A stretch of 64,000 nucleotides of DNA from an uncultured delta proteobacterium (GTDB taxonomy: Bacteria > Myxococcota > Myxococcia > Myxococcales > Myxococcaceae): the NCBI GenBank assembly GCA_963771175.1, contig CAVYSY010000033.1, positions 288,001 through 352,000 on the forward strand, read 5' to 3'. The notes beneath the pieces were generated by a model. The model did not search any database and was not told where the DNA came from. It worked only from the letters and a program-made list of their open reading frames with translations. Shown in pieces: positions 11,796 through 31,900 of this stretch. A program made the translations under genes and the position numbers. Each line of letters opens with the position of its first letter. Positions within the stretch are counted from its first letter, which is position 1.

Positions 11796-14700
11796 GTGAA
11801 TCACCGTCTTCTGATTGCCGCCTTGCTCGCCGCCCTCCTCCCGGAGGCAGCCCTGGCGCAGACCTATGTCGTCCCGCGTCGGGCCTACCGGTCACCGGTA
11901 CGCACCTACGAATTCGAGTGGCGGCACCTGGACATCCTCGTCGGCCCCCAGGCCGAGGGCGTCGCCGCGCCGCCCGCTCACCGGGCCCATACCCAACCGC
12001 CCGGTGCTCCGGGTGGCCCCACCCCCGCTACGCCCGCCCAGTCGCAGATGCGCTCGCCGGGAGTGACCACCCAGGACACGAAGACGATTCCCCCGTCCTC
12101 CGCCGTGGTCCAGGGGGAATCGGACAAGCAGCAGCGGGGCACCGGCGGCAGCTCCATCGAGGCCATCGAGCCGGGGAGCCCCACCCCCGTGGTGGACAAG
12201 CCGGACGGCGGCACGGCCGTCTCCGAGTCCCCGGCCTCCGGGAGCGACCTCTACGTCCCCATCGCCCTGTCCACGGATGGCGGCACCCCGGATGCCGGCC
12301 CCGCCTATGCCACGTCGCTCGGCGTCAAGAGCGGCGGCGTGCGCTTCTTCTTCTACGAGAGCGAGCGGAACGTGGCCCAGTACGCCGCGCCCCAGCTCGA
12401 GGACGCCTACCGCTACCTCGTCGACCGCTTCAAGTTCGTCCCCACGCAGACCTTCCCCTACATCCTCTACAGCAGCTACCAGGAGTTCCTGCAGACCAAC
12501 GTCTTCCCGATCTCGGAGGGCACCCTCGGCGTCACCAGCACCCAGGGTGACCTGGAGCTGACCCTGCCCTACCTGGGTGACCACCGCCTCTTCGGGGAGA
12601 TCAGCACCCACGAGATGGCGCACCAGTTCACCATCCAGAAGGTCCGGTTCCTCGCCGAGCAGCGCCAAGGTGGCGGGGGATCCGCTCAACGGGATTCCGC
12701 TCTGGTTCATCGAGGGTCTCGCCGAGTTCTACGCCAAGGGAGGGTTGGACCCCGAGGGCGAGATGATGGTGCGCGACCTCCTCATCAACCCGGACCTGAT
12801 GCGCGGGTACGCCTTCCTCGACTTCTGGTCCCCCGGGCCCTACGGCTTCCTGTGGATCTACAAGGTGGGCCAGGCGCGCTGCCAGTTCCTGGAGGAGACG
12901 TACGGGGGCGGCATCATCCAGAAGATCCTCGAGAACTCGCCCAAGCTCATCTCCGGCACGGGCACCACGCCCAACCTGCAATTCGAGGGGCTGGTGGAGC
13001 TGCTCACCGGGGACGAGCCGCCGAAGGTCGCCGCCAAGTTCGAGGCGTGGCTGAAGCAGCGCGCCTACCGCACCTACCTCAAGGCCGAGCAGGCCACTCC
13101 CTCGCTGGAGCTGCTGCGCGAGCGCAAGGGCATCGTCACCGCGCTCAACAGCTCCCCGGATGGGCGGGTGCTGCTGTACCGGAGCATCATCCCGGAGACG
13201 GGGGAGAGCCAGCTCATCATGCTGGACCCGCGCGCTCCGCTGGATCACGTGAAGGTGCAGGGGGACGGCGTGCCCGGCTACGAGTCGCTGCACCCCATCT
13301 TCGGACGCAACTTCGCCCTCACCGGGGACCGGCTGGCCTTCATCGCCGAGTCCCTGTCGCGCGACATCATCTATATCCAGTCCTACAAGCACACCGCCGA
13401 GCCCATCACCACCTTCGGTGGAACACTGGTGCCCGGGGGCCGCAGCCCCTACATGGCCACCGCCACCGGATTGCAGAAGGGGCCATCGGTCAAGGTGCGC
13501 TTCAAGATGGGCGAGCGCGTGGCCTACAAGCTGGCCGACCACGGACTCATCGCCGCGTACTCGCCGGTCTTCTCGCCGGATGGCAAGCAGCTCGCCTTCA
13601 TCGGCCTGAGCGAGACGGGCACGCGCGACGTGTACGTGATTCCGCTGGACCAGGGCATGGAGGTGGAGCCCCAGCAGCTCACCCATGACGTGTACGCCGA
13701 GCGCCAGCTCACCTGGGGCCAGGCCGGCCTCGTCTACAGCTCGGATGCCACCTCGCACGGCTACTACAACCTCTTCCGGCTGAAGCCGGAGAACCCCAGC
13801 CAGGTGGAGCGCCTCACCACCGAGGCGAGGGATCATCAAGATCCCATGGTGATGCCGGACGGCCGCCTCTTCTTCGTGGCCTACGACAAGAGCCGCTCGG
13901 ACCTGTACGAGTACACCGGCGGCGGCGGCCTCGTGCGGCGCACGGACGTGACCACCGGCCTCTTCGAGCCGAGCCCCGCGCCCGAGGGCAACCTGTGGAC
14001 GCTCTACCACCTGTCCGGTGAGCGAAAGCCGGCCCTGCTGCGCTCCAACCAGCTCATGTCCTTCGAGGTGGCCGACACGATGAAGGTCGCGGCCGCGCCG
14101 CCCAACCCCCTGCCCCAGCGCTCGCTGGTGGGCGCCGAGCCCTACAAGCCCTTCACCCAGGAGAACATCGACCTGGGGCCGATCATGGGCTTCGCCGGCG
14201 CGGGCGGCGGCGGCTTCTACGGCCAGCTCTTCGCCTCCGCCACGGATCGGCTGCGCAACCACGCCGCGCTCTTCCAGGTGGCCGTCTACGGCTCGCTGGA
14301 GCTGACCGATGGCTTCCTGATCTACCTCAACCAGAAGAACCGCCTGACGTGGGGCGGCGGCCTCTTCCAGTCCCTGCGCTTCCGCGTGGACGAGTCGCTG
14401 CGCCACAACGGCAGCAATCTGCCCTACTACGCGCTCACCTCCGGCGAGCGGTTCTTCGGCGCCACCGGTATCACCCGCTACCCGCTCAGCACCTTCACCT
14501 TCCTGGAGGCCAACCTGAGCATCGGCGGCGTGTCGTACTTCCTCGATCCGTACACCGCCTTCGTGCTCAACCTGGAGGAGATCAACAAGATCGGCGACCT
14601 GTACACCCCGTGGCGAGAGGCCAACCAGGGCCTACGATTCCAGACGGAGGGTTCCGTGGCGTGGGGCTACAACACCCTGCGCTACCACTATACGGGAGTC

Positions 14701-15345
14701 CCGCTGTCCGGCAGCTCGGTGCTGACGGAGCTCACCACCGGCGTGCAGCCCTTCCACGACCAGATCTTCGGCAACGTGCGCGTGGACGCCGAGCGCTACT
14801 TCCCGCTCTTCCTGGGCAGCACCCACCTGATGCTGCGCGGCGGCGCGGGCCTCACCTTCGGTGGACGCTTCGCCCGCTCCTTCTACCTGTCCAGCTTCGA
14901 CACCATCCGCGGCGCGCAGTTCGGCGACGAGGAGTGGCTGCTCGGCCAGCACTACGGGTACTCCACGCTGGAGCTGCGCGTGCCGCTCGACGCGCTCATC
15001 CGCATCGCCTTCCTCAACACCCTCATGGGCGTGGCGGGCTTCGACTTCGGCGGTGTGGGCAACTCGGGCCGCGACCTGTGGGACCACCGCGTCCTCGATG
15101 CCGCCGTGGGCGTCAACGTCGGCCTCGGGCCCCTGCTCCTGCGCCTGCACTTCGCCTACCCGTTCGACATCGGTGCTCCCGCCGGCCGCCCCTCCAACGA
15201 GTGGGTAACCCAGTTCTCCATCGGTCTCGCCGGACTCGAAGGCTACCTGTTCAAGGGGCACGGCAAGTCCACGCCGGGCGCCAAGGCGCCCCCCTCTCCT
15301 CCCGTGAGCCTCGGCGGCATGGGAATGCGGGTCGGCGGGAACTGA
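11796..15345 (+). CDS. Secreted fusion of zinc-peptidase (MA-like) domain, TolB/PD40 beta-propeller and Omp85-like barrel (one frameshift near 12660)
   Basis: Signal peptide; HEMAH (HExxH) followed by PLWFIEGLAE; YSPVFSPDGKQLAF (PD40); C-terminal IRG..ELRVPL..LRLHFAYPF barrel pattern. Confidence 0.7.
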
Positions 15346-17289: not shown

Positions 17290-17429
17290 GCGGGCACACA
17301 GGAGCCCACGACGGACAACGGCGGACCCTTCCGGAAGCGTGAGTTTCCCATCCACGGGGCCCCCAGCATCGACCAGCGGACAGAGCTGCCCCGGAGGACC
17401 AGGCATCCTCCTTGCTCCAGCAGGAGGCG

Positions 17430-19202
17430 ATGAGCTTCGCACGTCTGCTGTGCTCCCTGTCCGTTGCCGTCCTGCTCGCCTGTGAACCCGAGCACCCTGC
17501 ACCCGCCCCGGGGGGTGAGGGACAGACCCCCGTCCAGGAGGAGCCCCAACCCCCTCCCCCGCCGCCCGCGCCGCAGCCGCCCGCGCCGCAACCGCCCGCG
17601 CCGCCACCACCTCCTCCACGACCACCACCGGAGCCCGAGGCGCAACGCCCCTTCGTCCTGCCGCCGGTGCAGCAGTCCCTGCAGGATTACGAGCTGGTGC
17701 TGCCCCCGGGGGTGCTGGCGCGGTTCCTCGCCGACAAGAACACGCCGGAGCAGGACGCTGTCTTCCGCTGCAATGGCGTGAGCTATCCGGTGAAGGTGCG
17801 CCTGCGAGGGGCCTCCGCCCGCGACTTCCCGAAGAAGAGCTGGAACGTGAAGTTCGAGGGCAATGCCCGCTTCGAGGGACGAAAGTCGCTCAACCTCGTC
17901 GCCGAATACGCGGACGCCACGATGCTGGCGGAGAAACTCGCCTATGACGTGTTGGCCGCGCTGCGCGTGCCGGCCCCGCACGCGAAGTACGTCCGGCTGC
18001 GCCTCAATGGTCGCGATGAGGGCGTCTTCCTGGACATCGAGCAGGTCGACAAGTCCTTCCTGAAGGCCCATGAGTTCCCGGACCGGGACGCCACCATCTA
18101 CCGCGCCGGCTGGAAGGACACCGAGCTCAAGCTGCGCTCGTGGAAGGTGCCCTACCAGGGGAACTGGAGCCAGAAGACGAACGAGCAGAAGCCCGACGAT
18201 GCCGCTCTCGACGAGGTGCTGTACGTCATCAACCGCACCCCCGAGCCGGAGTTGCCCGGCGCGCTCGAACGACACATGGAGTTGGAAGGCTACCTGCGCT
18301 CCATGGTCATGGACGCGCTCATGGCCAACAACTTCATCGAGGACTCGGAGAGCTACTTCATCCACGACCGGGTGACGGGCCGCTGGGTGTACGTGGCGTG
18401 GGACCTCAACAACGTGGACGCGCGCTGGTGGTACCTGAATCCCCTCTCCCCGGAGCTGCAGCCCACCTACCGCCACCCGCTCTTCTCCTTCACCCTCACC
18501 GACGCGGTGGTGGCCAAACGGTACGCGGAGCGCATGGTCATCCACCCGGGCTACCTGCCCGTCTTCTCCAACCTGGGCACCCGCGTGGTGATGAACCCGG
18601 AGCTGCGCGCCCGCCTGGTGGCCCGCCTCGAGAAGGCCCTGGACGAGCTCTTCACCCCGGAAGTGATGGGGGCCCACATCGACAAGCTGCACGCGCTCAT
18701 CGCCTCGTCCATGGCCAATGATCCGTACATGGACTTCGCGAAGTTCCAGGCGGGCCGCGCCTTCATGAAGCAGTTCGTCAGCAAGCGGCGCGACCTGGTC
18801 CAGAAGGAGCTGAAGCGCTACCGCGAGCAGAGGCCCGGACTGGTGCTGGAGGCCGTGGACGCCCGCGAGGGCTGGGTGGAGCTGCGCAACCGGGGCCAGG
18901 AGACCGTGTCCCTCGGCGGGATGGTGCTCACCACGCACCTGCGGCGGAGCATCCCCAGCCTGCTGCGGCCCGAGAGTGGCCCGCCCGTGGGCGTCGTCCT
19001 ACCAAAGGTCACGCTGGCCCAGGGCGAGCGCGTGCGCTTCACCGCCGCCGAGCTGGGTCTCACCTTCACGCCCGATGGGGAGCTCGGCGTCTTCGATGGC
19101 CAGTCCGTGGTGGGGATGAAGGACATCCTCTTCTACGGGCCGCTGCCGGTCGGGATGCACTACGAGCGCACCGAGGACGATGGGAGCTGGCGGGTGCGCT
19201 GA
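17430..19202 (+). CDS. CotH kinase family lipoprotein with Pro-rich linker and lamin-tail-like C-terminus
   Basis: GGAGG RBS; lipobox LLAC; VRLRGASAR, PKKSWNVKF, LNGRDEGVFLDIEQVD, AWDLN; late WVELRN. Confidence 0.85.
   Translation: MSFARLLCSLSVAVLLACEPEHPAPAPGGEGQTPVQEEPQPPPPPPAPQPPAPQPPAPPPPPPRPPPEPEAQRPFVLPPVQQSLQDYELVLPPGVLARFLADKNTPEQDAVFRCNGVSYPVKVRLRGASARDFPKKSWNVKFEGNARFEGRKSLNLVAEYADATMLAEKLAYDVLAALRVPAPHAKYVRLRLNGRDEGVFLDIEQVDKSFLKAHEFPDRDATIYRAGWKDTELKLRSWKVPYQGNWSQKTNEQKPDDAALDEVLYVINRTPEPELPGALERHMELEGYLRSMVMDALMANNFIEDSESYFIHDRVTGRWVYVAWDLNNVDARWWYLNPLSPELQPTYRHPLFSFTLTDAVVAKRYAERMVIHPGYLPVFSNLGTRVVMNPELRARLVARLEKALDELFTPEVMGAHIDKLHALIASSMANDPYMDFAKFQAGRAFMKQFVSKRRDLVQKELKRYREQRPGLVLEAVDAREGWVELRNRGQETVSLGGMVLTTHLRRSIPSLLRPESGPPVGVVLPKVTLAQGERVRFTAAELGLTFTPDGELGVFDGQSVVGMKDILFYGPLPVGMHYERTEDDGSWRVR
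17562..17606 (+). repeat. Three 15-bp tandem units encoding PPAPQ/PPAPP in the CotH linker
   Basis: ccgcccgcgccgcag, ccgcccgcgccgcaa, ccgcccgcgccgcca. Confidence 0.85.
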
Positions 19203-19206
19203 AAGC

Positions 19207-19253
19207 CTCGCGCCAGCGAATACGGGTCTGGGGGAACCCGCCGCTGGCGCGAG
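19207..19253. terminator. Long hairpin between convergent cotH and the small precursor gene
   Basis: ctcgcgccagcg (19207-18) pairs with cgctggcgcgag (19242-53), with an inner cgggt/acccg stem. Confidence 0.55.
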
Positions 19254-19283: not shown

Positions 19284-19451
19284 TCAGTAGCTGCTCGTCT
19301 CCTCCCCCACCGCCATCGTGGTGATCGGGCCGTCGCCCTCCTCGCCCACCGCCAGCGTCGTGACCTGCGAGCGGCCACCGCGGACGTTCTCCAGATCCTT
19401 CGTGGGCAGCTCATAGTCGATGAAGGTCTTCTTCTTGCCTGTCTTGCTCAT
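19284..19451 (-). CDS. Plesiocin-type (TTxxxxEE) graspetide RiPP precursor, 55 aa, absent from the ORF track
   Basis: Manual translation MSKTGKKKTFIDYELPTKDLENVRGG-RSQVTTLAVGEEGDGPITTMAVGEETSSY*; GGGAGAG RBS upstream; double-Gly leader; two TTxAVGEE cores. Confidence 0.85.
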   Translation of the reverse strand: MSKTGKKKTFIDYELPTKDLENVRGGRSQVTTLAVGEEGDGPITTMAVGEETSSY

Positions 19452-19618
19452 TGCGCTCTCCCGTGAGTGCGGCGGTCCATGGAGAGGACGCCGCCGATAC
19501 CGAGGCAGCCTCGGCTCCCTCGGTGCGGATGGAGAGCGCTGTCGCGGCGTGTGATGCCGGACACGACGAGCGCGGCTCAGCTCCGCAGCCCGGAGAGCGA
19601 GCGCCTGGGCTCGCCGCG

Positions 19619-21990
19619 TCAGCGCCGCTCGCGCACCACCAACGTCCGACGCGCGCTGAGTCCCCGGTCATCCGAGACGAGAATCTCGTGGGTGCCCGGC
19701 GAGGGAGCCCACCACACCCGCTCGTCCGCGTGCGCCTTGCCCAGGAAGATCGCCGTCCACGAACCACGTCAGCTCCCCGTCTCCGGCGGCCTCGGCCTCC
19801 AGCGGCACCTCCTGCTGCGTCCGCCGCCACGCCCGGGATGAGCAGCGCCACCTGTCCCTCTCCGGGCGAGATGATCTCCGGCGCCGCCGTGCGCCCCGCA
19901 GGCTCGCAGCCAGGTGCATGAGCGGGGGGCTGGGGCAGCAGGCGGTGCTGCTCGGTCAGCCAGCGCCGGATGCTCGCCGGCCAGGTGAGGTACACGCGCG
20001 ACTCCGTCTGCCTCCCAGCCCGGCACGTGGGGCTCACCGCCAACCCCGTCTTCACGTCCACCTCCACCCGCAGGTGATAGGGACAGGGCACGGTCGGCAC
20101 GTGGCTACGCTTCGCGTACACCCTGCGCCGCTGGGTACACGCCTCGGTGGGCAGGTGACCCGACCAGGCGCAGACCTCCACCTGGGTGAGCTCCGAGGGC
20201 ACCACCGCGTCCGCGTCCTCGAGCCGTCCCCGAGGACCCAGTGCCTCCAGGATGTCGAAGAGGATCGGCCCCGACGCGTCCGCGCCCACCAGGTGCACGC
20301 TGGGGGAGTTGTCGAAGTTGCCCACCCACACCACGGCGGTGTGCCGGGGCCCCGAGCCCGCCGCCCACGCGTCGCGGTGGCCGAAGCTCGTCCCCGTCTT
20401 CCAGTGCACCCGCGGTGGCAGGCCCGTCAGCTTGCGGCGAGCCGGGAAGTCCGGCCGATCCTTCAGGGACAGCGCACGCCGGGTGAGCCATGCCGCCCCG
20501 GGGGAGAAGAGCGCCTGTGCGTCGGCCTCGGACTGGCCCTCCTCCAGCAGCTTCAGCGGGCGCGCGTGGCCGTTCTCGGCGAGGGCCACGTAGACGCCCG
20601 CCACCTCCAGCGGCGTGAGCTCGATGCCGCCCACCGCCGCGGACAGCCCGTAGTGGCCCGGGTCCGGGTGCAGGCTCGTCACTCCGGCCAGCCGCAGCGC
20701 CCCCAGGAAGCGCTCCACCCCGAGCCGCTGCAGCAGCTTCACGAAGGGCAGGTTGAGCGACTGCGAGAGCGCGTCCTCCAGCCGCACCAGCCCCTGGAAG
20801 CGCCCGTCGAAGTTGCGCGGCGCGTAGGTGCCATACGCGACCGGGATGTCCGCCACCAGTTGCTCGGGCCCGGCCAGCCCCTGGTCGATGGCCAGCGCGT
20901 AGATGAGCGGCTTGAGCGCCGAGCCCGGCGAGCGTGTCGTGGCGAAGCCCGGGAGCTGCCCGCCGTGCGCCGTGTCGAAGAAGTCGAAGTTGCCCACCAG
21001 CGCGATCACTTCCGCGCGCTCGCGGTCCACCACCACCGCCGTCCCGTTGTGGATGCCCTTGGCGGCCAGCTCGGGAGCGGCGTCCAGCATCGCCCGCTCC
21101 ACCAGCCGCTGCGCGCCCGCGTCCAGCGTGGTGCGCAGCCGTGCCTGCCCGGGCCGCTGCGCCCGCAGCCATACCGCCGCGTGCGGCGCCTCGCGGGGAA
21201 AGGGCGTGAGCCGCGAAGGCACGGCCGTGGCCCGCACCTCCGCTAGCGCCGCCTCCGGCGTCACCCGAGCCTCCTTCGGACCCAGCGGCAGGGCCTCCTC
21301 GTCGAAGAGCCGCTGCGCCACCTCGTCCCGTGCCGTCTTCAGCCGCGCCGCGTTCTCCGGCGTGGGGAAGCGGCGGTTCGGGTTCTGTGGCACCGCCAGC
21401 AGCGTCGCCATCTCCGCCGGGCTCAGGTGCGTCGCCCGGTGCCCGAAGTACGCCAGTGCCGCCGCCTCCACCCCTTCCACGTTCCGCCCGTAGGGCACGA
21501 ACTGCAGATAGGCCGAGAGGATCTCCCGCTTGGACAGGCGCAGCTCCAACTGCGCTGCCCTCAGGGACTCGATGAACTTGGACGTCAGGGTGCGCGGCCG
21601 GGGCTCCAGCACCCGCACGAGCTGCATGGTCAGCGTGGACGCCCCGGACACCCGCCGGCCCCGCAGCACGTTCGTCACCGCCGCGCGGGCGACGGCGAGC
21701 GGATCCACTCCCACGTGCCAGTGGAAGCGCTTGTCCTCCAGCGCCAGCAACGCCCGGAGGTAGGCCGGGTCCACCTCCTCCAGCACCGTGGGCACCCGCC
21801 ACCGCTCATCCGGCGCCAGGAAGACGTGCGCCGGTGTGCCGTCCCGGTACTCCACCACCACCGAGTTCGGCGAGGAGAGGCGCTCGGGCAGAGGCAACAG
21901 CCAGGCCGCCGCGAGGGCGGCGAGACAGAGGCACAGGAGGAAGAGGGCTCCCTGGAGAACCCTCTTCCGGGAGAGACGAAGTGCCGGCAT
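19619..21990 (-). CDS. pbpC: Penicillin-binding protein 1C (frameshifts near 19750 and 19820)
   Basis: Transglycosylase EDKRF, SGASTLTMQ; transpeptidase SPGSALK, SLN, KTGT; the reframed C-terminus LTWFVDG..GTHEILVSDDRG..VRERR stops at 19619; lies downstream of A2M. Confidence 0.92.
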
Positions 21991-22033
21991 GGAAATCGAA
22001 AACCCCACCAGAGGGGTGACGTGAAGGGCTCGC

Positions 22034-23587: not shown

Positions 23588-26500
23588 ATGGTCGGCATTC
23601 CAGGCTACACGCTCATCGACAAGCTCAAGTCGACTGGCACGAACATCTTGTACCACGCGGTCCGCGATGCCGATCGCCTGCCTGTGATTGTCAAGATGCC
23701 CCTGTCCGCGCACCCCGGTCCGCGAGAGCTCGAGCACTACCGTCGCGAGCACGCCATCCTGCAGCAGCTCCGAGAGGTGCGCGGCGTCACCAGGGTCCTC
23801 GGCTGCGAGCTGAGCAACGGGCGTCCGGTGCTCCTGCTGGAAGGAGATGCGGGAAAGGCCCTGTCCGAGTCCGTGGGACTACCGTTCGAGGTGAGCCACT
23901 TCCTCGAGCTGGCCATCTCCCTGGCGTCGACCCTCGCGGAGCTCCACCGCCACGGCGTCATCCACAAGGACCTCAAGCCCTCCAACATCATCCTCCTGCC
24001 CTCGGGAGAGACGCGCATCATCGACTTCGGGACCGCCACGCACCAGAGCGTCGAGCACGTGGAGGCGGCGCCCGCGAACCTGATCGAAGGAACCCTGGCC
24101 TACATGTCCCCGGAGCAGACCGGGCGCATGAACCGGACGGTGGACTACCGCACCGACCTGTACTCCCTGGGGGTGACGTTCTACGAGCTGCTGACGGGCA
24201 CCCTGCCCTTCCACGGGCGCGACGCGCTGGAATGGTTCCACGCCCACATGGCCCAGGCCCCGAGGCCCCCGCACGAGCGCATTCCGACCGTGCCCCCCAG
24301 CCTGTCCGCCATCGTGATGAAGCTGCTCGCCAAGGTGGCCGAGGAGCGCTACCAGGGCGCCGATGGACTGAAGGCCGATCTCGTGCGGTGCCGGGAGGCG
24401 CTGAGCCGTGGCGAGCGCGAGACGTTCCCCCTGGGAGAGCACGACAGCCCCACCCACTTCCAGATGCCCCAGCGGCTCTACGGGCGCGAGACGCAGGTGG
24501 AAACCCTGCTCCAGGCCTTCGAGCGAATCGCCCGGGGTGGGCGCCGGAGCTCGTCCTGCTCAGCGGCTACTCCGGCGTCGGGAAATCGGCGGTGGTCCAT
24601 GAGCTGTACCGGCCGATCGTGCAGCGGCGCGGTCTCTTCCTGTACGGCAAGTTCGACCAGTTCCAGCGGGACATCCCCTATGCCACCCTGGCCCAGGGCA
24701 TCCGAGGACTGGTGCGGCAGCTCCTGGCCGGCACCGACGCGGAGCTCGAGACGTGGCGCGGGCAACTGCGGGAGGCGTCGGAGGACAACGGACAGCTCCT
24801 CGTGGATCTGGTCCCGCAGCTCGAGCTCGTCGTGGGCAAGCAGCCGGCCCTCCCGGAGCTCCCGCCCACCGAGGCGCAGAACCGCTTCGACCGGGTGTTC
24901 CAGCGCTTCCTCGGGGTCCTCTCCACCCCCGAGCACCCGCTCGTCATCTTCCTGGATGACCTGCAGTGGGCCGACCTGGCCAGCCTCCGGCTCATCCAGC
25001 ACCTCCTCACCCACCCGGATACGCATCCGGTGTTGATGATCGGCGCCTACCGCGACAACGAGGTCAGCCCGTCCCACCCGCTGATGCTGGCGCGGGAGGA
25101 GCTGCTGAAGGGCGGCTCGCGGGTGGCCGACCTCCGGCTCGAGCCACTGAAGCTGGAGCAGCTCCAGCAGATCATCGCGGATGCGCTCCCGGGCGCGGGG
25201 CGGGAGATCGTCGAGCCCCTCGCGGAGCTGGCCCACGAGAAGACCGGGGGCAACCCGTTCTTCTTCCTCCAGCTCATGCGGACGTTGAACCAGGATGGAC
25301 TCCTGACCCGCACGCCCGAGGGCGTCTGGCGGTGGGATGCCGTGGGCGTCCGGGCCAAGGCGTACTCCGACAACGTCGTCGACTTCCTGGTGGGCAAGCT
25401 GCGCCAGCTCCCTCCGGTGACCCAGCACCTGCTGCTCCTGTCGGCGTGCGCGGGGAATGCCTTCCCACTCCAGACGCTGGCCATCATCTCCGACAAGACG
25501 GTGGAAGAGGTGGAACAGGGCCTCGAGCCCGCGCTCCAGGAAGGCCTGGTGATGCGCGGAGGCCAGGAGCAGTACCGGTTCCTCCACGACCGCATCCAAC
25601 AGGCGGCCCACTCCCTCAGCACCGAGGAGGAGCGCAAGGCCATCCACCTGCGCATCGGCCGCCTGCTGCTGGCGAGCCTGCCCCCGGAGGAGGTGCGGGA
25701 GAAGGTCTTCGACGTGGTGAACCAGTTCAACGCCGGGGCGGAGCTGATCCACTCCCCCGAGGAGCGCCAGCACATCGCGCACTTGAACGCCGAGGCCGGC
25801 TGGAAGGCCCAGGCCTCGACCGCGCACCGCTCGGCCATCGCCTATTTCACGGCGGCCCTCCAGCTCCTCCCGGGGGACCCCTGGGAGTTGGATCCCGAGT
25901 GGACCTTCAAGCTGAGCCTCCAGCGGGCGACCAGCGAGTTCATGAGCGGCAACGCGGCCGAGGCGCGCCTCCTCGTGGAGGCACTCCGTGCTCGGGCGCG
26001 CAACCCCTCGGACCTGGCGGCGGTCTCCCGGCTGCTGAACGACATCCACCTCGCCGCCGGAGAGATCCAGGCGGCCGTCACCTGTCTCCTGGAGTGCCTC
26101 GCCTCGCTGGGCATGCCCATGTCACCGCACCCCTCCCAGGAGGAGGTGGCGTCCGCCAACGCGGAGTTGTTGGCCCTCCTGGGGGAGCGCCCCATCGAGA
26201 GCCTCCTCGAGCTGCCCCTCATGACGGACCCGGACATGAAGGTGACGATGAGCGTCCTCGCCGCCCTGTTCACGCCCGCGCTCTTCACCGACAACAACCT
26301 GCTCGTCCTCCACCTCAGCCGGATGGTCCTCCTCTCCCTCCGGCACGGCAACAGCGAGGCCGCCGCGCATGGTTATGCGTGGTACGGCATCGTGCTGGGC
26401 TCCTCCCTCAAGAAGTACCGGGAAGGTCATGCCTTCGGCGAGCTGGCCCTGGCCCTCATCGAGCGCCACGACTTCTCCGCCTCCCGGGCGAAGGTCCTCT

Positions 26501-28901
26501 ACACGCTGGAGTTGCTCAACTTCTGGACGCGGCCCATGGCCCGCTCCCTGGCGCTCATCCGCGAGTCCTTCCAGTACGCGGTTCCGGCGGGTGACTTCCA
26601 GAGCGCCTGCTATTGCTGCAACCACATCGTCACGGATCGCCTCGCCCTGGGGCACGAGCTCGATGAGGTCTACCAGGAGTCGATCGCGCGCCTCGATTTC
26701 GCGCGCAAGGCCGGCTACCAGGCCGTGCAGCAGGTCATCCACCACACCCAGCGCTACGTGCAGCAGCTTCAAGGCCTCTCGCCCTCCTTCTGCTCGCTGA
26801 GCGGTGAGGACTTCGAGGAAGAGGCCTTCGAGGCCGAGCTGTCGGCGAAGAAGCACCTGAGCACCGTGGAGTGCTGGTACTGGGTCCTCAAGATGCAGTC
26901 GCGCTTCATGTGCGGCGCGTACGAGGAGGCACGTCAGGCGTCGGCCAGGGCCGCGGAGTTCCTCTGGTCCTCGTGGGGCCACATCCAACTGCTGGACTTC
27001 CACTTCTATAGCGCCCTGTCCCTGGCCGCCTGCTGCGAGGACGCGACGCCGGAAGCGCGGCGGGAGTACCTCGAGGCCCTGCGGCGGCACCACCAACAGC
27101 TCGAGGAGTGGGCGGGCCACTGCCCCGAGAACTTCCGCGCGCCCGAGCGGATGGTCTCGGCGGAGCTCGCCCGGCTCGAGGGCAGGAGGGACGAGGCGCT
27201 CAACGCCTACGAGGAGGCGCTCCAATCGGCCCGCGAGAACGGCTTCATCCAGAACGTCGGCCTCGCGAGCGAGCTCGCGGCGAGGTTCTGGCAGAAGCGG
27301 CAGGTGCCGACCATCGCCCTGGCCTACGCCCGCGAGGCCCGCGAGGCGTACCGGACGTGGGGAGCCCATGGCAAGGTCCAGCAGTTGGACGACCAGTGGC
27401 CCTTCCACTCGGGACTGGCGAATGGTGCGAGCACCCGCTCCTTCGATACGAGCTCGACGCAGGTCGACGCGCTCACCGTGGTGAAGGCCCAGCAGGCCAT
27501 CTCCGGGGAGATCGTTCAGGAGCAGCTGGTGTCCACGCTGTTGCAGGTGGCCATCGAGAACGCGGGCGCCCAGCGCGGTGCCCTGCTGCGCCCGCACGGC
27601 AACAAGCTCCGACTCGTGGCCATCTCCGGCGACGCGGAGGGCGGCACCGTGGTCCTCCCGGACGAGGGCTCCACCCACGAGCTGCCGTGGTCGCTCCTCG
27701 CCTACGTCAAGCGCTCGCACGAGCACGTGCTCATCGGCGATGCCTCGCGCCCCCATGCCTACGCCTCCGACCGGTACTTCGAGCGCGGCGGGGCCAGGTC
27801 GGTGCTCTGCCTGCCGCTGCTGCGCCAGGAGGAGCTCGTCGGAGTGCTGTACCTGGAGAACAGCCTCGCCACCGATGCCTTCAACCCGGCCCGCATCACG
27901 CTGCTCGGGCACATCGCCTCCCAGGCCGCCATCTCACTCGAGCACGCGCGGCTCTATGCCGACGTCCAGCGCGCCAGGACCGACCTGCGCCACGCCAACG
28001 ATGAGCTGGAGCGGCGGGTGGACGAGCGCACGCACGAGCTGAAGGAAGCCCAGGCCCGGCTCGTGGAGATGGCGCGTGCGGCGGGCATGTCCGAGATCGC
28101 CTCCAACGTGCTGCACAACGTGGGCAACGTCCTCACCAGCGCCGTCGTCAACCTGGAGATGATGCGCCATGCGGTGGGCGCGTCGCGAGTCGTCCGGGTG
28201 AGAGCAGGTGGCCTCCCTGCTCGAGGAGAACCGCGCGGAGCTGGCGGGCTTCCTCACGAAGGATCCGCGGGGCAGCCGCCTGCCCGACTACCTCTCCGCG
28301 CTCGCGACCGAGCTCACCCACGAGCAGACGGTCCTGCAGGAGAACCTGGACGCCATGAACAGGCACCTCGAGCACATCCGGGCCATCGTCCAGGTGCAGC
28401 AGACCTACGCCAAGAGCTCGATCCTCACCGAGGAGTGCAACCTCGCGCAGCTCATCGACGACACCCTGCGCATCCAGTACGCCGCGCTCCAGCGGCACGG
28501 CGTCACCGTCACACGCGAGGTCATCCCCCTCCCCATGGTGCGGCTGGACAAGCACAAGGTGATGCAGATCCTCATCAACCTCATCGGCAACGCCAAGTAC
28601 GCCATGGACGAGATGCCCGAGGGGCAGCGACACCTGCGCGTGCGGCTCACCGCCGAGAAGGGGTGGGCGCGCATCCAGGTGACGGACAGTGGCATGGGCA
28701 TCGCGCCGGAGGTCCGCGGGAAGCTCTTCTCGCACGGCTTCACCACGCGCAAGGAGGGCCACGGCTTCGGCCTGCACTCGAGCGCCTTGGCGGCGAAGAT
28801 GCTGGGGGGCTATCTGACGCTGGAGAGCGAGGGGCCCAACCAGGGGGCCACGGCCACGCTGGAGATTCCGCTCACGCCCGAGAGCCAAGCGGGAGGAGTG
28901 A
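23588..28901 (+). CDS. Trifunctional Ser/Thr kinase - AAA ATPase - GAF - histidine kinase (frameshifts near 24540, 28200 and probably 28890; end approximate)
   Basis: HKDLKPSN, DFG, YMSPEQ; Walker A GYSGVGKS, Walker B LDDLQWAD; GAF GVLYLEN; H-box LHNVGN; NAKYA, DSGMG, GHGFGL. Confidence 0.9.
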
Positions 28902-28902
28902 G

Positions 28903-28924
28903 CCCCCCTCCCGAAGGAGGGGGG
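28903..28924. terminator. Hairpin between the convergent kinase and A2M genes
   Basis: cccccctcc-cgaa-ggagggggg. Confidence 0.6.
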
Positions 28925-28936
28925 AAGGAGTGCGGA

Positions 28937-31900
28937 CTACAGCAGGAAGTCCGCCCAGGGGCCGGAGACCTCGACCGAGCCTCCCGCCTCGCGCGCCCAG
29001 ATGCGCGGGTCGTACATCGCCTCCGCCTCCACCGGCGGCAGCGTGAACTTGCCCGACGTCACCGCGCGCACCGCGTAGACCACCTTCTTCGACTCGCCCG
29101 CGTCGAGGCCGCCGAACACCTCCACCCGGTCGTCCCGGATGTTCACGTAGTCCGCGCTCCACTGGTCATCGGCGGAGGCCCACTCCACCTGGCCTCCGCG
29201 CCCGAGCCGAGCGTTCTCGATCTCCCAGCCCGCCGGCAGCCGGTCCACCAGCGCGATGTTCTGGATGCGCTCGCCGGAGGTGTTCTTCAGCTCCACCTCC
29301 ACGTAGACGAGGTCCGCCAGCTTCACCGACCCGCCCTGCACGTCGAGCACGTTGCCCTCGAGGTCGCGGTAGCGCCGCTCGAGGGTGAGCCCCTCGCCGC
29401 CCGTGCGATACTGCCCATCCACGCGCACGCCGTCGCTCGCGAGCACCAGGTACAGCTTGCCGTCGCCCTTCTCCGGGACCTTCAGGCTCAGGCCCTTGCG
29501 CTCGCTGGCGCGCACCAGCGCCCACGTCCGATCCGAGGCGCGCTGCTTGCTTCCCTGCTGCACGGCGACCTCCTTGCCGTCCGCCGTCAGCACCGGGGGA
29601 GAGAACTTCGAGGCCGCTCCCGCCACGCGCTTGCCCAGGCCGGTGATGCCCCAGACGAGCTCCTGGGTGGTGTAGTAGCCGCTGCGCTCCTGCTTGAGGG
29701 CCTCGGCCACGCGCTGTGCGAGCGGCTCGCCCGCCGCGTCGTTCCCGAACAGGTCCTGGAACGTGCTCAGCATGAAGCCGCGCCGGCGCCGGTCCGAGTA
29801 GAAGGACCAGCTGTTCCACCGCTCGTCCAACACGGCCGAGACGTCCGGGTTGCGCAGGTCCTTCTCGTAGCGGCGGTCCCCGGCCAGATACAGCGCTGCC
29901 TTGAGCATGTACTCCTGCTCGGCGCGCTGGCTGTCGCTGTAGAACTCCTGGCTCCCGAGCTGGTCCACGAGCTTCTGCGCCCGCGCCTTGTGGCCCTTGC
30001 CGGCCATGGACAGCACGTAGTGCATGTAGGCCTCGGCGCCGTCGTTGTAGGAGTCCGAGCCCGAGCGGTTCTCACGGCGAGCCACCTGCTGGTTCATCCA
30101 GCTCAGCGCGTTGTCGATGCGGTCCTGCGGCACCGCGTACTTGAGCTTCTGCGCGTCCAGCAGCATGTGCGTGGCGTAGGCCGTGCCCCACTCCACCGGC
30201 TCGGCGGAGCCCGGCCAGTAGCCGAAGCCGCCCGAGGGCGTCTGCATGGAGAGCACCCGGTTCACGCCCGACATCACCATGTCCTCCAGCTTCGCGTTGG
30301 CCGTGAGCGTCGGGTCCACGCTGTCGATGAGCTCGGAGACGTAGAGCAGCGGGCGGGTGGAGGACGTCGTCTGCTCGATGCAGCCGTGCGGGTATTGCAC
30401 CAGGTACGAGAGGTGCTGGAAGGACTCGGCGTAGGGGTTCGTCGTCACCCAGAACGTCGAGCGCTCGCTGGTGGGCAGCCAGCCCTGGAGGTACTGCGAC
30501 AGGTCCACCGTGCCGGTGGCCAGCTCGAGCCGCTGCACCTTCCGCTCGCGAGGGCCCGAGGGCAGGAAGGGCACGTCGAGCTGCTCGAAGGAGGTGTGTC
30601 CACCGCCCTCGGCCGTCACCTTGAGGCGAGCCGCGCCCACGGCCTGCACCGCCTTGGCTTGGAAGACGAGCGTGGCCGCCTTCCCGTCCTCCAGCTTCAC
30701 CTTGCCCTCGCTCTTGCCGAGCAGTTGCAGCGGCGACGCCATGGAGGCGGGCATCGCCATGCCCGGCACCGCGAGGTTCTCCGCGGTGAGGGACACCTTC
30801 ACGTCCTGCGCCTTGCCGGAGAGGTTGGTGACGAAGACGGGGATTTGAATCTCGTCCCCCTGGCTGAGGAAGCGAGGCAGCGTGGTCTGGAGCACGAGCG
30901 GGTCGCGCACGAGCACCTGCGCGGCGGCGTGGCCGATGCGCTTGGGGCCGCTCGTCACCACCATCACCCGCACCGCGCCGCGGTACTGGGGCAGCTTGAA
31001 GGGAACGCGCAGCTTGCCGTTGGAGGGCACCGGCAGCACGCCACTCCAGAGGGCCACCGGCTTCACCGGCTGCACACGGCCCGCCGCGCCGTCGCCGCCC
31101 TCGTCACCACCCGTGGAGCGGCTGGCACCCGCGGGAGGAATCAACAGCGTCCACCCGAGCGTCTCGTACGTCTGCACGCCGAGGGCCCGCTTGGTGAAGA
31201 GCGCCTGGAGGGGGTCGGGGCTCTGGAAGCGGGTGAGCGAGAGGATGCCCTCGTCCACCACCGCCACGGTGGCGAAGGTAGCCCTTCTCCACGGCGCCCA
31301 GCTCCACGTCCACCGTGAGGGTGTCGTTGGAGCGCACCTCCTTGGGCACGTTGAGGGTGACGGCCTGCGTGTAGTCCACGGGCTCCAGCGTCATGCTGGC
31401 CACGCCGAAAGCGCGGTCCGGCATGAAGGCCTCGGCGGACTCGAGGTGCGGGTCCTTCACCAGGAAGGTGCTGACGTAGACGTTGGGCGCGAAGGCCGAG
31501 GGCTTGAAGCTCCACGACACCTCGCCCGGCTCCACGGCCTTCCACTCGGCGGCCTGCACGCCGTCCGTCTCGGCGGTGAAGAGCATGCGGCCGCGGTAGG
31601 GCGCCTTCACCTTCACGGTGATGGAGTCCCCCACCTTCGCCGAGCGCGGCAGCTCCACCGCGAGCGAGGTGGGCCGCGCCGGCCGGGGCGTCTGGTCCAC
31701 GCGCGAGGAGGACTCGTCCCACCAGTAGTACCGGCCGTGGCCCTCGAGCTGCAGGTCCGTCTGCGCCGCGCCGGACTTCACGCGCACCACGTAGCCGCGC
31801 GGCGTCCATGGACGGCGTCACCTGGAAGGAGAACTTGCCGCCCTCGGGCTTGACGGTGGTGCGGCCCTCGCGCACGGGGCGCAGGTGGCGCTGGTAGCGC

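Follow-up and report, generated by a model that had tools for sequence, protein, structure and literature searches.

Does a 55-residue open reading frame on the minus strand of the 64-kb stretch of myxobacterial DNA analysed here (the window) encode a genuine graspetide precursor, and, if so, which enzyme would cyclise its product? TTxxxxEE repeats are the core of plesiocin-class peptides, in which the ATP-grasp ligase PsnB is described as forming two nested Thr-Glu omega-esters per repeat (bioRxiv 10.1101/2021.03.09.434688). The original prediction read the frame as a precursor of this type, and translation of 19284-19451 on the minus strand gives exactly the same residues, including both TTxxxxEE cores. 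Judged by its sequence and its relatives, this interval is a real, conserved plesiocin-type (group 2 graspetide) precursor gene, P0001, with the following parts.

19284..19451, minus strand: orphan group 2 graspetide precursor gene P0001, 55 residues, comprising a 26-residue leader and a 29-residue core region.
19456..19462, minus strand: ribosome-binding site GGGAGAG, its GGAG invariant upstream of 16/16 aligned homologues.
19404..19424, minus strand: leader motif FIDYELP (residues 10-16), common only to the peptide beside the ligase on contig C36 and predicted to bind that ligase.
19374..19409, minus strand: double-glycine signal for export and cleavage, with L(-12), L(-7), V(-4) and G(-2)G(-1), assigned from 16/16 homologues and the rule in PMC10885120.
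19338..19361, minus strand: core 1, TTLAVGEE (T31-E38), from translation and alignment.
19299..19322, minus strand: core 2, TTMAVGEE (T44-E51), likewise from translation and alignment.

The TT pairs are followed by Leu in core 1 and Met in core 2, Cys is absent from the peptide, and the ribosome-binding site of its own that had been expected lies at 19462-19456. No Pfam family matches P0001, NCBIfam returns one sub-threshold bactofencin match only (E 0.027), and a single-sequence PDB search gives nothing better than E 0.44. The genome that contains the window (G000; 9.83 Mb, 58 contigs, 81.7% complete) was also searched for other TTxxxxEE reading frames. A single motif occurs in 79 ORFs, and P0001 alone among 169,514 six-frame stop-to-stop ORFs contains two, when about 0.007 close pairs would be expected by chance. 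Other TTLAVGEE-like matches, at C40:304428 and C45:73738, were set aside as chance occurrences, being leaderless and inside or antisense to longer ORFs.

The gene sits between two neighbours that lie outside the system.

19619..22008, minus strand: pbpC, the upstream neighbour, with its actual stop (TGA) at 19621-19619.
17412..19202, plus strand: CotH-kinase family gene, the convergent neighbour, found beside the precursor in 7/16 genomes.
19207..19253, minus strand: GC-rich hairpin in the gap that separates the precursor stop from the CotH-kinase gene, with no U-tract.

As it appears in the window, the pbpC ORF (19411-22008) covers the first 41 nt of the precursor. That this is a false read-through masking the precursor start, as had been proposed, is confirmed by comparison with relatives: an intact PbpC aligns with the window across three reading frames, the frame changes falling near 19830 and 19750, and its match stops at 19619, and a contig of run X3, about 98% identical, is free of indels at 19752, 19818, 19885 and 19894. 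The overlap is thus explained by frameshifts, caused by assembly indels, in pbpC; the same contig shows no indel within the precursor. It also carries 886 extra bases at window 19606-19613, approximately the size of a two-gene cassette present there in relatives (a small Cys-motif protein and DUF2243), which seems to have been lost from G000. Further apparent frameshifts at 11796-15345 and 23588-29046 each split a gene and fit assembly indel errors; we take the first of these genes to be TolB/BamA-like, and the second is presumably a kinase-AAA-GAF-histidine kinase. On the other side of the precursor the anticipated hairpin was recovered, with its main stem at 19253-19207. The stretch 3' of the gene folds at -51.8 kcal/mol (z -4.4), a stability matched by 0/200 shuffles, but the stem lacks a U-tract, and a terminator scan returned 0 sites. 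Lying between two convergent stops (the CotH gene ends at 19202), it may serve either the precursor or the CotH gene.

Conservation provides the main argument that the frame is a functional gene. Homologues were collected from 201 genomes of the family, among which a single-sequence search with P0001 gave matches in 35. A profile HMM built from the alignment of 16 full-length homologues (A1) recovered 16/201 genomes at E <= 7e-30, with the next match at 1.4e-17; the profile was made from the same 16 sequences, and its informative outcome is that no further member was gained. The unpublished genome G049 enters these and later counts through denominators only. The 16 genomes span four genera, with 10 in the genus of the window (G000 included) and 4, 1 and 1 in the others, the closest named relatives being Archangium, and in a phylum-wide sample the full-length orphan was found in 4/301 genomes (E <= 7e-30), all of them members of this same family (f1). 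The invariant columns comprise K, F, Y-E-L-P, L and GG in the leader and T, T, A, E, E in the core. In the alignment the ring-forming residues are conserved and the loop and linker residues vary, although the T-T/S..E-E pattern itself served to preselect the sequences of the residue-conservation count. A search of the protein database gives 766 proteins that pass E 0.001; of the best 119 matches listed besides P0001, 108 have the full leader pattern (102 of these contain three cores, 5 contain two and 1 contains four), and members that carry a name are called hypothetical or uncharacterized proteins.

These observations bear directly on whether the orphan is a decaying, functionless leftover of a broken cluster, a reading to which we give very little credence. 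It would account for the two cores of P0001 against three in 15/15 aligned relatives, and the expression data are unconvincing: run X1, labelled as RNA, yields a single contig of 151 nt that covers 19291-19441 without a difference (depth 3), and it was discarded as evidence of expression since the same run holds a piece of pbpC and may contain DNA. Decay is difficult to reconcile, however, with an ORF that is intact in 16 genomes of four genera, which bears out the predicted conservation in related myxobacteria, or with invariant columns of which 13/19 are encoded by several synonymous codons. Variation across the family is highest at third codon positions (0.36 versus 0.27 and 0.18), two-core members with a full leader recur among the best database matches (the 5 noted above), the ribosome-binding site and a promoter-like motif are conserved upstream while the remaining spacer is not, and the orphan is absent where the ligase described below is absent. 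On this comparative evidence the decayed-leftover reading is largely refuted.

The second question is which enzyme could act on the peptide. Domain searches found neither an ATP-grasp nor a C39 domain in the 64-kb window, and tblastn searches of the window and of the surroundings of the other 15 genomes, for which five different ligases and one C39 domain served as queries, gave 0/16 matches; these surroundings extend about 10 kb each side in 12 genomes, and in three the contigs are shorter (4.7, 7.2 and 12 kb). The stated absence of an ATP-grasp ligase and a C39 peptidase-transporter from these 64 kb therefore stands. A canonical group 2 cluster has its precursor adjoining the ligase gene, an arrangement found in 0/16 surroundings, and no dedicated C39 transporter was found in cis within the 16; P0001 is consequently a group 2 precursor, not a canonical cluster. 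Within the genus a phospholipase D gene is found close to the precursor, in most cases together with CotH, pbpC or DUF2243. None of these four is constant, and in the 6 genomes that belong to other genera the precursor has none of them nearby, so that all were rejected as functional partners. The expectation of the same ORF downstream of pbpC in relatives is accordingly upheld for the ORF and fails for its position, as pbpC adjoins it in just 6/16 genomes.

A hunt through the whole genome did locate a PsnB-like ligase, on a different contig and accompanied by a peptide gene of its own.

G000:C36:2361-3317: PsnB-like ATP-grasp ligase P0002, downstream of ruvC-ruvA.
G000:C36:3430-3588 (L050:2567-2725), head-to-head with P0002: unannotated 52-residue one-core peptide, inserted after ruvA.

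The best PDB match of P0002 is PsnB (E 2.1e-39; next 1e-22). Reading the alignment of this match by eye, with a 20-residue tag offset, places R65, R95, K167, T175, R176, R185, V194, F196, R206 and D228-F229-R230 of P0002 opposite the identical PsnB residues R72, R101, K172, T180, R181, R192, V201, F203, R213 and D233-F234-R235, and PsnB Y171, I193 and L196 are replaced by F, L and V. The roles of these residues are taken from the study of PsnB, which describes R101 as kept in group 2a enzymes only (bioRxiv 10.1101/2021.03.09.434688). Across 27 orthologues of P0002, R65, R95, R206 and F196 are invariant and D228-F229-R230 is at least 90% conserved. The marks of a PsnB-type macrocyclase (R72, R213, the DFR loop, R101 and a hydrophobic leader pocket) are thus all found in P0002.

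In the adjoining peptide on C36 the leader reads FIKFELP, the linker is rich in Lys and Pro, there is one core, and a GG signal is lacking. In the genus, 11/11 members with the ligase have such a peptide, with 29-30 residues from Phe to Thr, a linker that is about half Lys/Pro and a single core, in which TS replaces TT in 4. The ligase-adjacent peptide has 8-14 cores in several genera without the orphan, and in other genera the ATP-grasp gene stands head-to-head with longer relatives of the precursor at 11/14 loci (L036-L049). Short adjacent peptides occur also in relatives without the orphan, so the shortening is a clade trait and no proof of a hand-over of function to the orphan.

Several variants were encountered in other genomes. 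Two ligase copies 66% identical to P0002, L119 (G015:C34) and L120 (G139:C370), have no TTxxxxEE peptide within about 6 kb. At L039 (G052:C6) and L043 (G097:C35), a leader and 2-4 TTxAxGEE cores are fused to a C-terminal domain of about 120 residues with no Pfam match, encoded on a contig other than that of the ligase; these fusions are possible protein substrates of the same enzyme. L115 (G042:C62:2667-3377), a precursor-like ORF that has nine cores and a variant leader, likewise lies on a contig other than that of its genome's ligase and adjoining peptide, and is another dispersed substrate. Cyanobacteria (L015, L017) and Thiodiazotropha (L016, L018) have group 2 precursors of great length, containing 14-18 cores, and in the cyanobacterial pair an N-terminal domain of about 110 residues replaces the short leader.

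The distribution of the two genes links the orphan to the remote ligase. All 16/16 orphan genomes carry a ligase 75-100% identical to P0002. A full-length ligase of at least 50% identity is present in 64/201 genomes by hand count, two more having partial copies, and all 55 genomes with any A1 match fall, by hand comparison, among these 64, of which about 48 (also a hand count) are without the orphan family. Within the genus, 10 genomes have both genes, 1 has the ligase only and 7 have neither (Fisher p 2.5e-4, with kin not independent); this count includes the 73% complete G177 and scores G015, whose 66% identical copy has no adjoining peptide, as lacking an orthologue. Because kin are not independent, a gyrB tree was built for 35 genomes, with G177 left out for want of a match. 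On this tree the 10 genomes without either gene fall in about six separate places; with 100% support, G120 (neither gene) is placed beside G102 (both genes) and G145/G152 (neither) beside G138 (both). Nine genomes on the tree have the ligase only and 0 the orphan only. In 8 genomes both genes share one contig, at distances of 53, 92, 153, 669 and 721 kb and 4.7, 5.1 and 7.0 Mb, and with the genes on one contig yet far apart the split is no assembly effect.

A predicted complex of two P0002 copies with P0001 scored 0.49, compared with 0.02 for the best control. The mark for such scores was reached by 116/157 solved and 2/215 mismatched pairs, and marks at scores <=0.60 comprise just 18 of those solved pairs together with both mismatches. 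The model, in which the partner has a pLDDT of about 38 and contact agreement is at least 33%, lends weak support to the pairing. Scores in this low range are frequently wrong, and resemblance to the solved PsnB complex may account for the value obtained.

We think it highly likely that P0001 is a stand-alone substrate gene, matured in trans by the remote plesiocin-branch ligase P0002. What speaks against this pairing is that the ligase has its own local peptide and does not need the orphan. One alternative is that a different enzyme cyclises the orphan, be it the class-2 plesiocin-branch ligase of the genus, a microviridin-type ligase or one missing from the assembly. The DLExVxGG end of the orphan resembles PsnA2 and the class-2 peptides, other peptide ATP-grasp ligases lie on C3, C26 and C27, and at 81.7% completeness another ligase could be unassembled. 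Against this, the class-2 ligase occurs in just 6/16 orphan genomes, was not found in G000 or in the two-contig G159, and is present in 7/8 genus members without the orphan, a distribution by which it was rejected as the partner. The ligases of C3 and C26 own unrelated peptides, all three of the other loci (C3, C26 and C27) were rejected as having other cognate peptides or being broken, and a group 2 precursor is reported to be left unmodified by a group 1 ligase (PMC11626197). A different ligase is therefore improbable, though slightly less so than decay.

These other loci have features of their own. The class-2 system of the genus (L130-L139) has an LFVQDL..GG peptide with one Cys-containing core, and ligase and peptidase-transporter in cis; its peptide family corresponds to cluster5018 in PMC8939145. 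The C26 locus (G000:C26:103-2473, L003) encodes a GG-leader peptide that ends in a core rich in Cys and Asp, an ATP-grasp ligase and a chaperone/PPIase-like partner, a layout that resembles group 21 as described in PMC13097080, and a broken paralogue lies at C27:1800-3800 (L004).

The leader provides a further link between the orphan and the remote ligase. The pattern F[IV]x[YF]ELP occurs 2 times in the 18.6 million six-frame residues of G000, with 0.09 expected, and both sites, one in the orphan and one in the ligase's own peptide, precede a core. A looser pattern has 8 matches, of which again only those in the orphan and the C36 peptide are followed by a core; since the pattern was drawn from the same peptide families, this is a check of specificity within the genome and not a blind test. 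FIxYELP is invariant in A1 and differs from the LFIEDL of PsnA2 in sequence and register, and its binding by the ligase is predicted. The Phe stands at -17 from the GG end in the orphan versus -11 in PsnA2, and the Phe precedes the first Thr by 21 residues in the orphan, a spacing that is 16 for PsnA2 and 29 for the local peptide on C36. The best PDB match of the orphan family profile is PsnA2(14-38), at E 0.0085. The proposed likeness to the plesiocin leader thus holds for the GG end, the putative binding motif being a different one, and with a leader that differs from that of PsnA2, PsnB itself may not accept the orphan.

The second element of the leader, which overlaps the end of the ligase motif, sets the two peptides apart. 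Leaders recognised by C39 peptidase-transporters are described as having a GG end and hydrophobic residues at -4, -7 and -12 (PMC10885120). The predicted agreement with this double-glycine consensus holds in 16/16 orphans, compared with 0/26 ligase-adjacent peptides for the hydrophobic positions before GG (the 26 that were scored among the 30 best ligase loci). The transporter itself could be encoded elsewhere, as there are 5 C39 matches in the rest of G000. A transporter on C25 is a candidate exporter, with an orthologue (at least 77%) in 35/201 genomes, including 15/16 with the orphan, but it sits in a class II lanthipeptide cluster and is found in 18/18 genus genomes, orphan or not; no transporter that tracks the orphan family specifically was found.

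Upstream of the gene lies a further conserved element.

19530..19556, minus strand: bipartite promoter-like element TCACA-N14/15-NCTC, here CATCACAC-N13-TCTCCA, with a putative promoter function.

TCACA-N14/15-NCTC is found 64-117 nt upstream of 16/16 group 2 orphans. A matrix derived from 13 of the 16 orphan sites, with the 99th percentile of random windows as cut-off, scores above that cut-off before 11/15 orphan and 4/15 clustered microviridin-like genes, and before just 2/11 ligase genes and 1/11 local peptides. Co-regulation of the orphan with its ligase through this motif is accordingly unsupported, the element being mostly absent before the ligase. There is no genome-wide enrichment of the motif (41 per Mb versus 77.5 in shuffles), and we regard the short bipartite element as a lead for a promoter common to orphan graspetide genes. 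Further TCACA..CTC elements occur in G000 at C36:29928, C36:82839, C32:293950 and C36:84723, ahead of what we take to be a fragment of a lanthipeptide-type precursor and further genes putatively of peptide pathways, and the sites form a possible regulon of an alternative sigma factor. The second box and spacer differ from the reported ECF41 signature, TGTCACA-n16-CGTC (PMC3426412), and we assign no particular sigma factor.

Dispersal is also seen in a second graspetide class of the same genus. Of 30 fetched loci with microviridin-like precursors (32 matches), 15, in 13/18 genomes, have no ATP-grasp gene within 1.5 kb, and in the single-contig genome G120 the microviridin ligase pair maps to 0.28 Mb, far from the precursor, which maps to 9.63 Mb. 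One such precursor in G000 (G000:C21:35130-35339, L147:5131-5340) has a PFFARLL leader, GG and two TxKFPSD cores with no ligase nearby; its probable partner is the pair of MvdC/MvdD-like ligases on C3, which has another precursor. An unannotated 63-residue GG-leader peptide is encoded at G000:C28:142649-142840 (minus strand), upstream of a 396-residue unknown protein and downstream of a 282-residue ORF, and marks a possible further peptide pathway.

We propose the following mechanism for maturation of the orphan in trans. P0001 would be transcribed from its own promoter, and the FIDYELP leader would dock in the leader pocket of P0002. In PsnB, leader binding is reported to activate the enzyme, Glu is phosphorylated and, of the two Thr-Glu esters, the inner one is made first (bioRxiv 10.1101/2021.03.09.434688). 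With ATP, P0002 would likewise install two nested Thr-Glu esters per TTxxxxEE, four in all, with a loss of 72 Da. A C39 peptidase-transporter borrowed from another cluster would then cut after the GG (G26) and export a 29-residue two-hairpin peptide of 2912.35 Da after the loss of four waters. The calculated monoisotopic masses fall from 2984.39 to 2912.35 Da for this core and from 5920.94 to 5848.89 Da for the untagged precursor that retains its Met. The product would probably be a serine-protease inhibitor, like plesiocin, for which Ki values of 16 nM for elastase and 7.5 nM for chymotrypsin are given in PMC10125368. We are less sure of the export route and the target of the product than of its pairing with P0002.

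It is also conceivable that the orphan is expressed and exported yet acts unmodified or only partly modified, or serves through its leader as a ligase-binding decoy or regulator and not as a product. The leader motif alone would suffice for ligase binding, and the complex model leaves the fold of the peptide uncertain. Conserved ring-forming residues alongside variable loops and linkers are nevertheless the pattern of an ester-forming substrate, and a GG leader implies removal of the part that binds the ligase. We consider such a role unlikely, if marginally more plausible than cyclisation by another ligase, and retain P0001 as a probable substrate of P0002.

The closest characterised system is plesiocin (PsnA2/PsnB, Plesiocystis pacifica, PDB 7DRM), which has the same TTxxxxEE repeats and an xDLxxVxGG leader end, and a ligase whose catalytic, core-binding and leader-pocket residues are kept in P0002. 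The orphan differs in being remote from its ligase, in having two or three cores against the four of plesiocin, and in its FIxYELP motif with Phe at -17 in place of LFIEDL with Phe at -11; in addition, P0002 keeps a second, non-GG peptide beside it. The ligase subfamily and FIxYELP leader also appear in cluster2725 (PMC8939145, supplements 2 and 10), an uncharacterised myxobacterial group 2 locus whose ligase is assigned to Branch_Plesiocin. Its peptide is identical in sequence to the one next to the ligase in L069, and the L069 ligase is 78% identical to P0002. As described in its text, that survey covered the first and second neighbours of ligase genes only; it raises distant precursors as a possibility and, by its own statement, leaves genes in trans aside. 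In its sequence file YELP occurs 5 times, always in cluster2725, and FELP 0 times, so that, judged by these two motifs, the GG-leader orphans are absent from that file.

Prochlorosins offer the nearest parallel in gene layout, with ProcM/SyncM and scattered procA/syncA genes (PMC10783134); like the orphans, their precursors are encoded far from the enzyme and have a leader that is conserved and ends in GG. They differ in having lanthipeptide chemistry and tens of hypervariable cores, as opposed to ester chemistry and one conserved orphan per genome; neither a LanM enzyme nor Cys/Ser/Thr lanthionine chemistry applies to P0001, which has no Cys, and the likeness is one of gene layout only. The Rheinheimera rcp system (RcpA/RcpB/RcpC) also has a group 2 GG-leader precursor, from which a C39 peptidase domain is reported to remove the leader to give a product that inhibits proteases, but there precursor, ligase and transporter are clustered (PMC11626197). 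No report of a remote graspetide precursor was found in the literature searched, which does not extend to two key surveys (Ramesh 2021; Choi and Link 2023). The chemistry, the ligase subfamily and the adjoining peptide are already known; the conserved split layout and the two-purpose leader set this case apart.

The finding provides a conserved, testable case of one ligase with two probable substrates, of which only the distant one carries an export signal. An enzyme tolerant of anything from 15 to 34 residues between leader and core would be a useful cyclisation tool. The usual target of surveys is the precursor beside the ligase, and mining based on neighbours would miss a remote orphan; with microviridin-like precursors dispersed likewise in the genus, myxobacterial peptide inventories may be systematically incomplete. 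More speculatively, and with the balance tilted against it, the graspetide pathways of Archangium-like myxobacteria could be divided between hub enzymes and plug-in substrate genes located at a distance. The ligase-adjacent peptide, shrunk to one, sometimes degenerate, core with a linker rich in Lys and Pro and without an export signal, would then be an intracellular activator or regulator, and the secreted product would come from a distant gene with a leader combining ligase motif and GG, a promoter shared with dispersed microviridin-like genes and a borrowed transporter. If this holds, neighbour-based mining would predict the wrong product for PsnB-like ligases.
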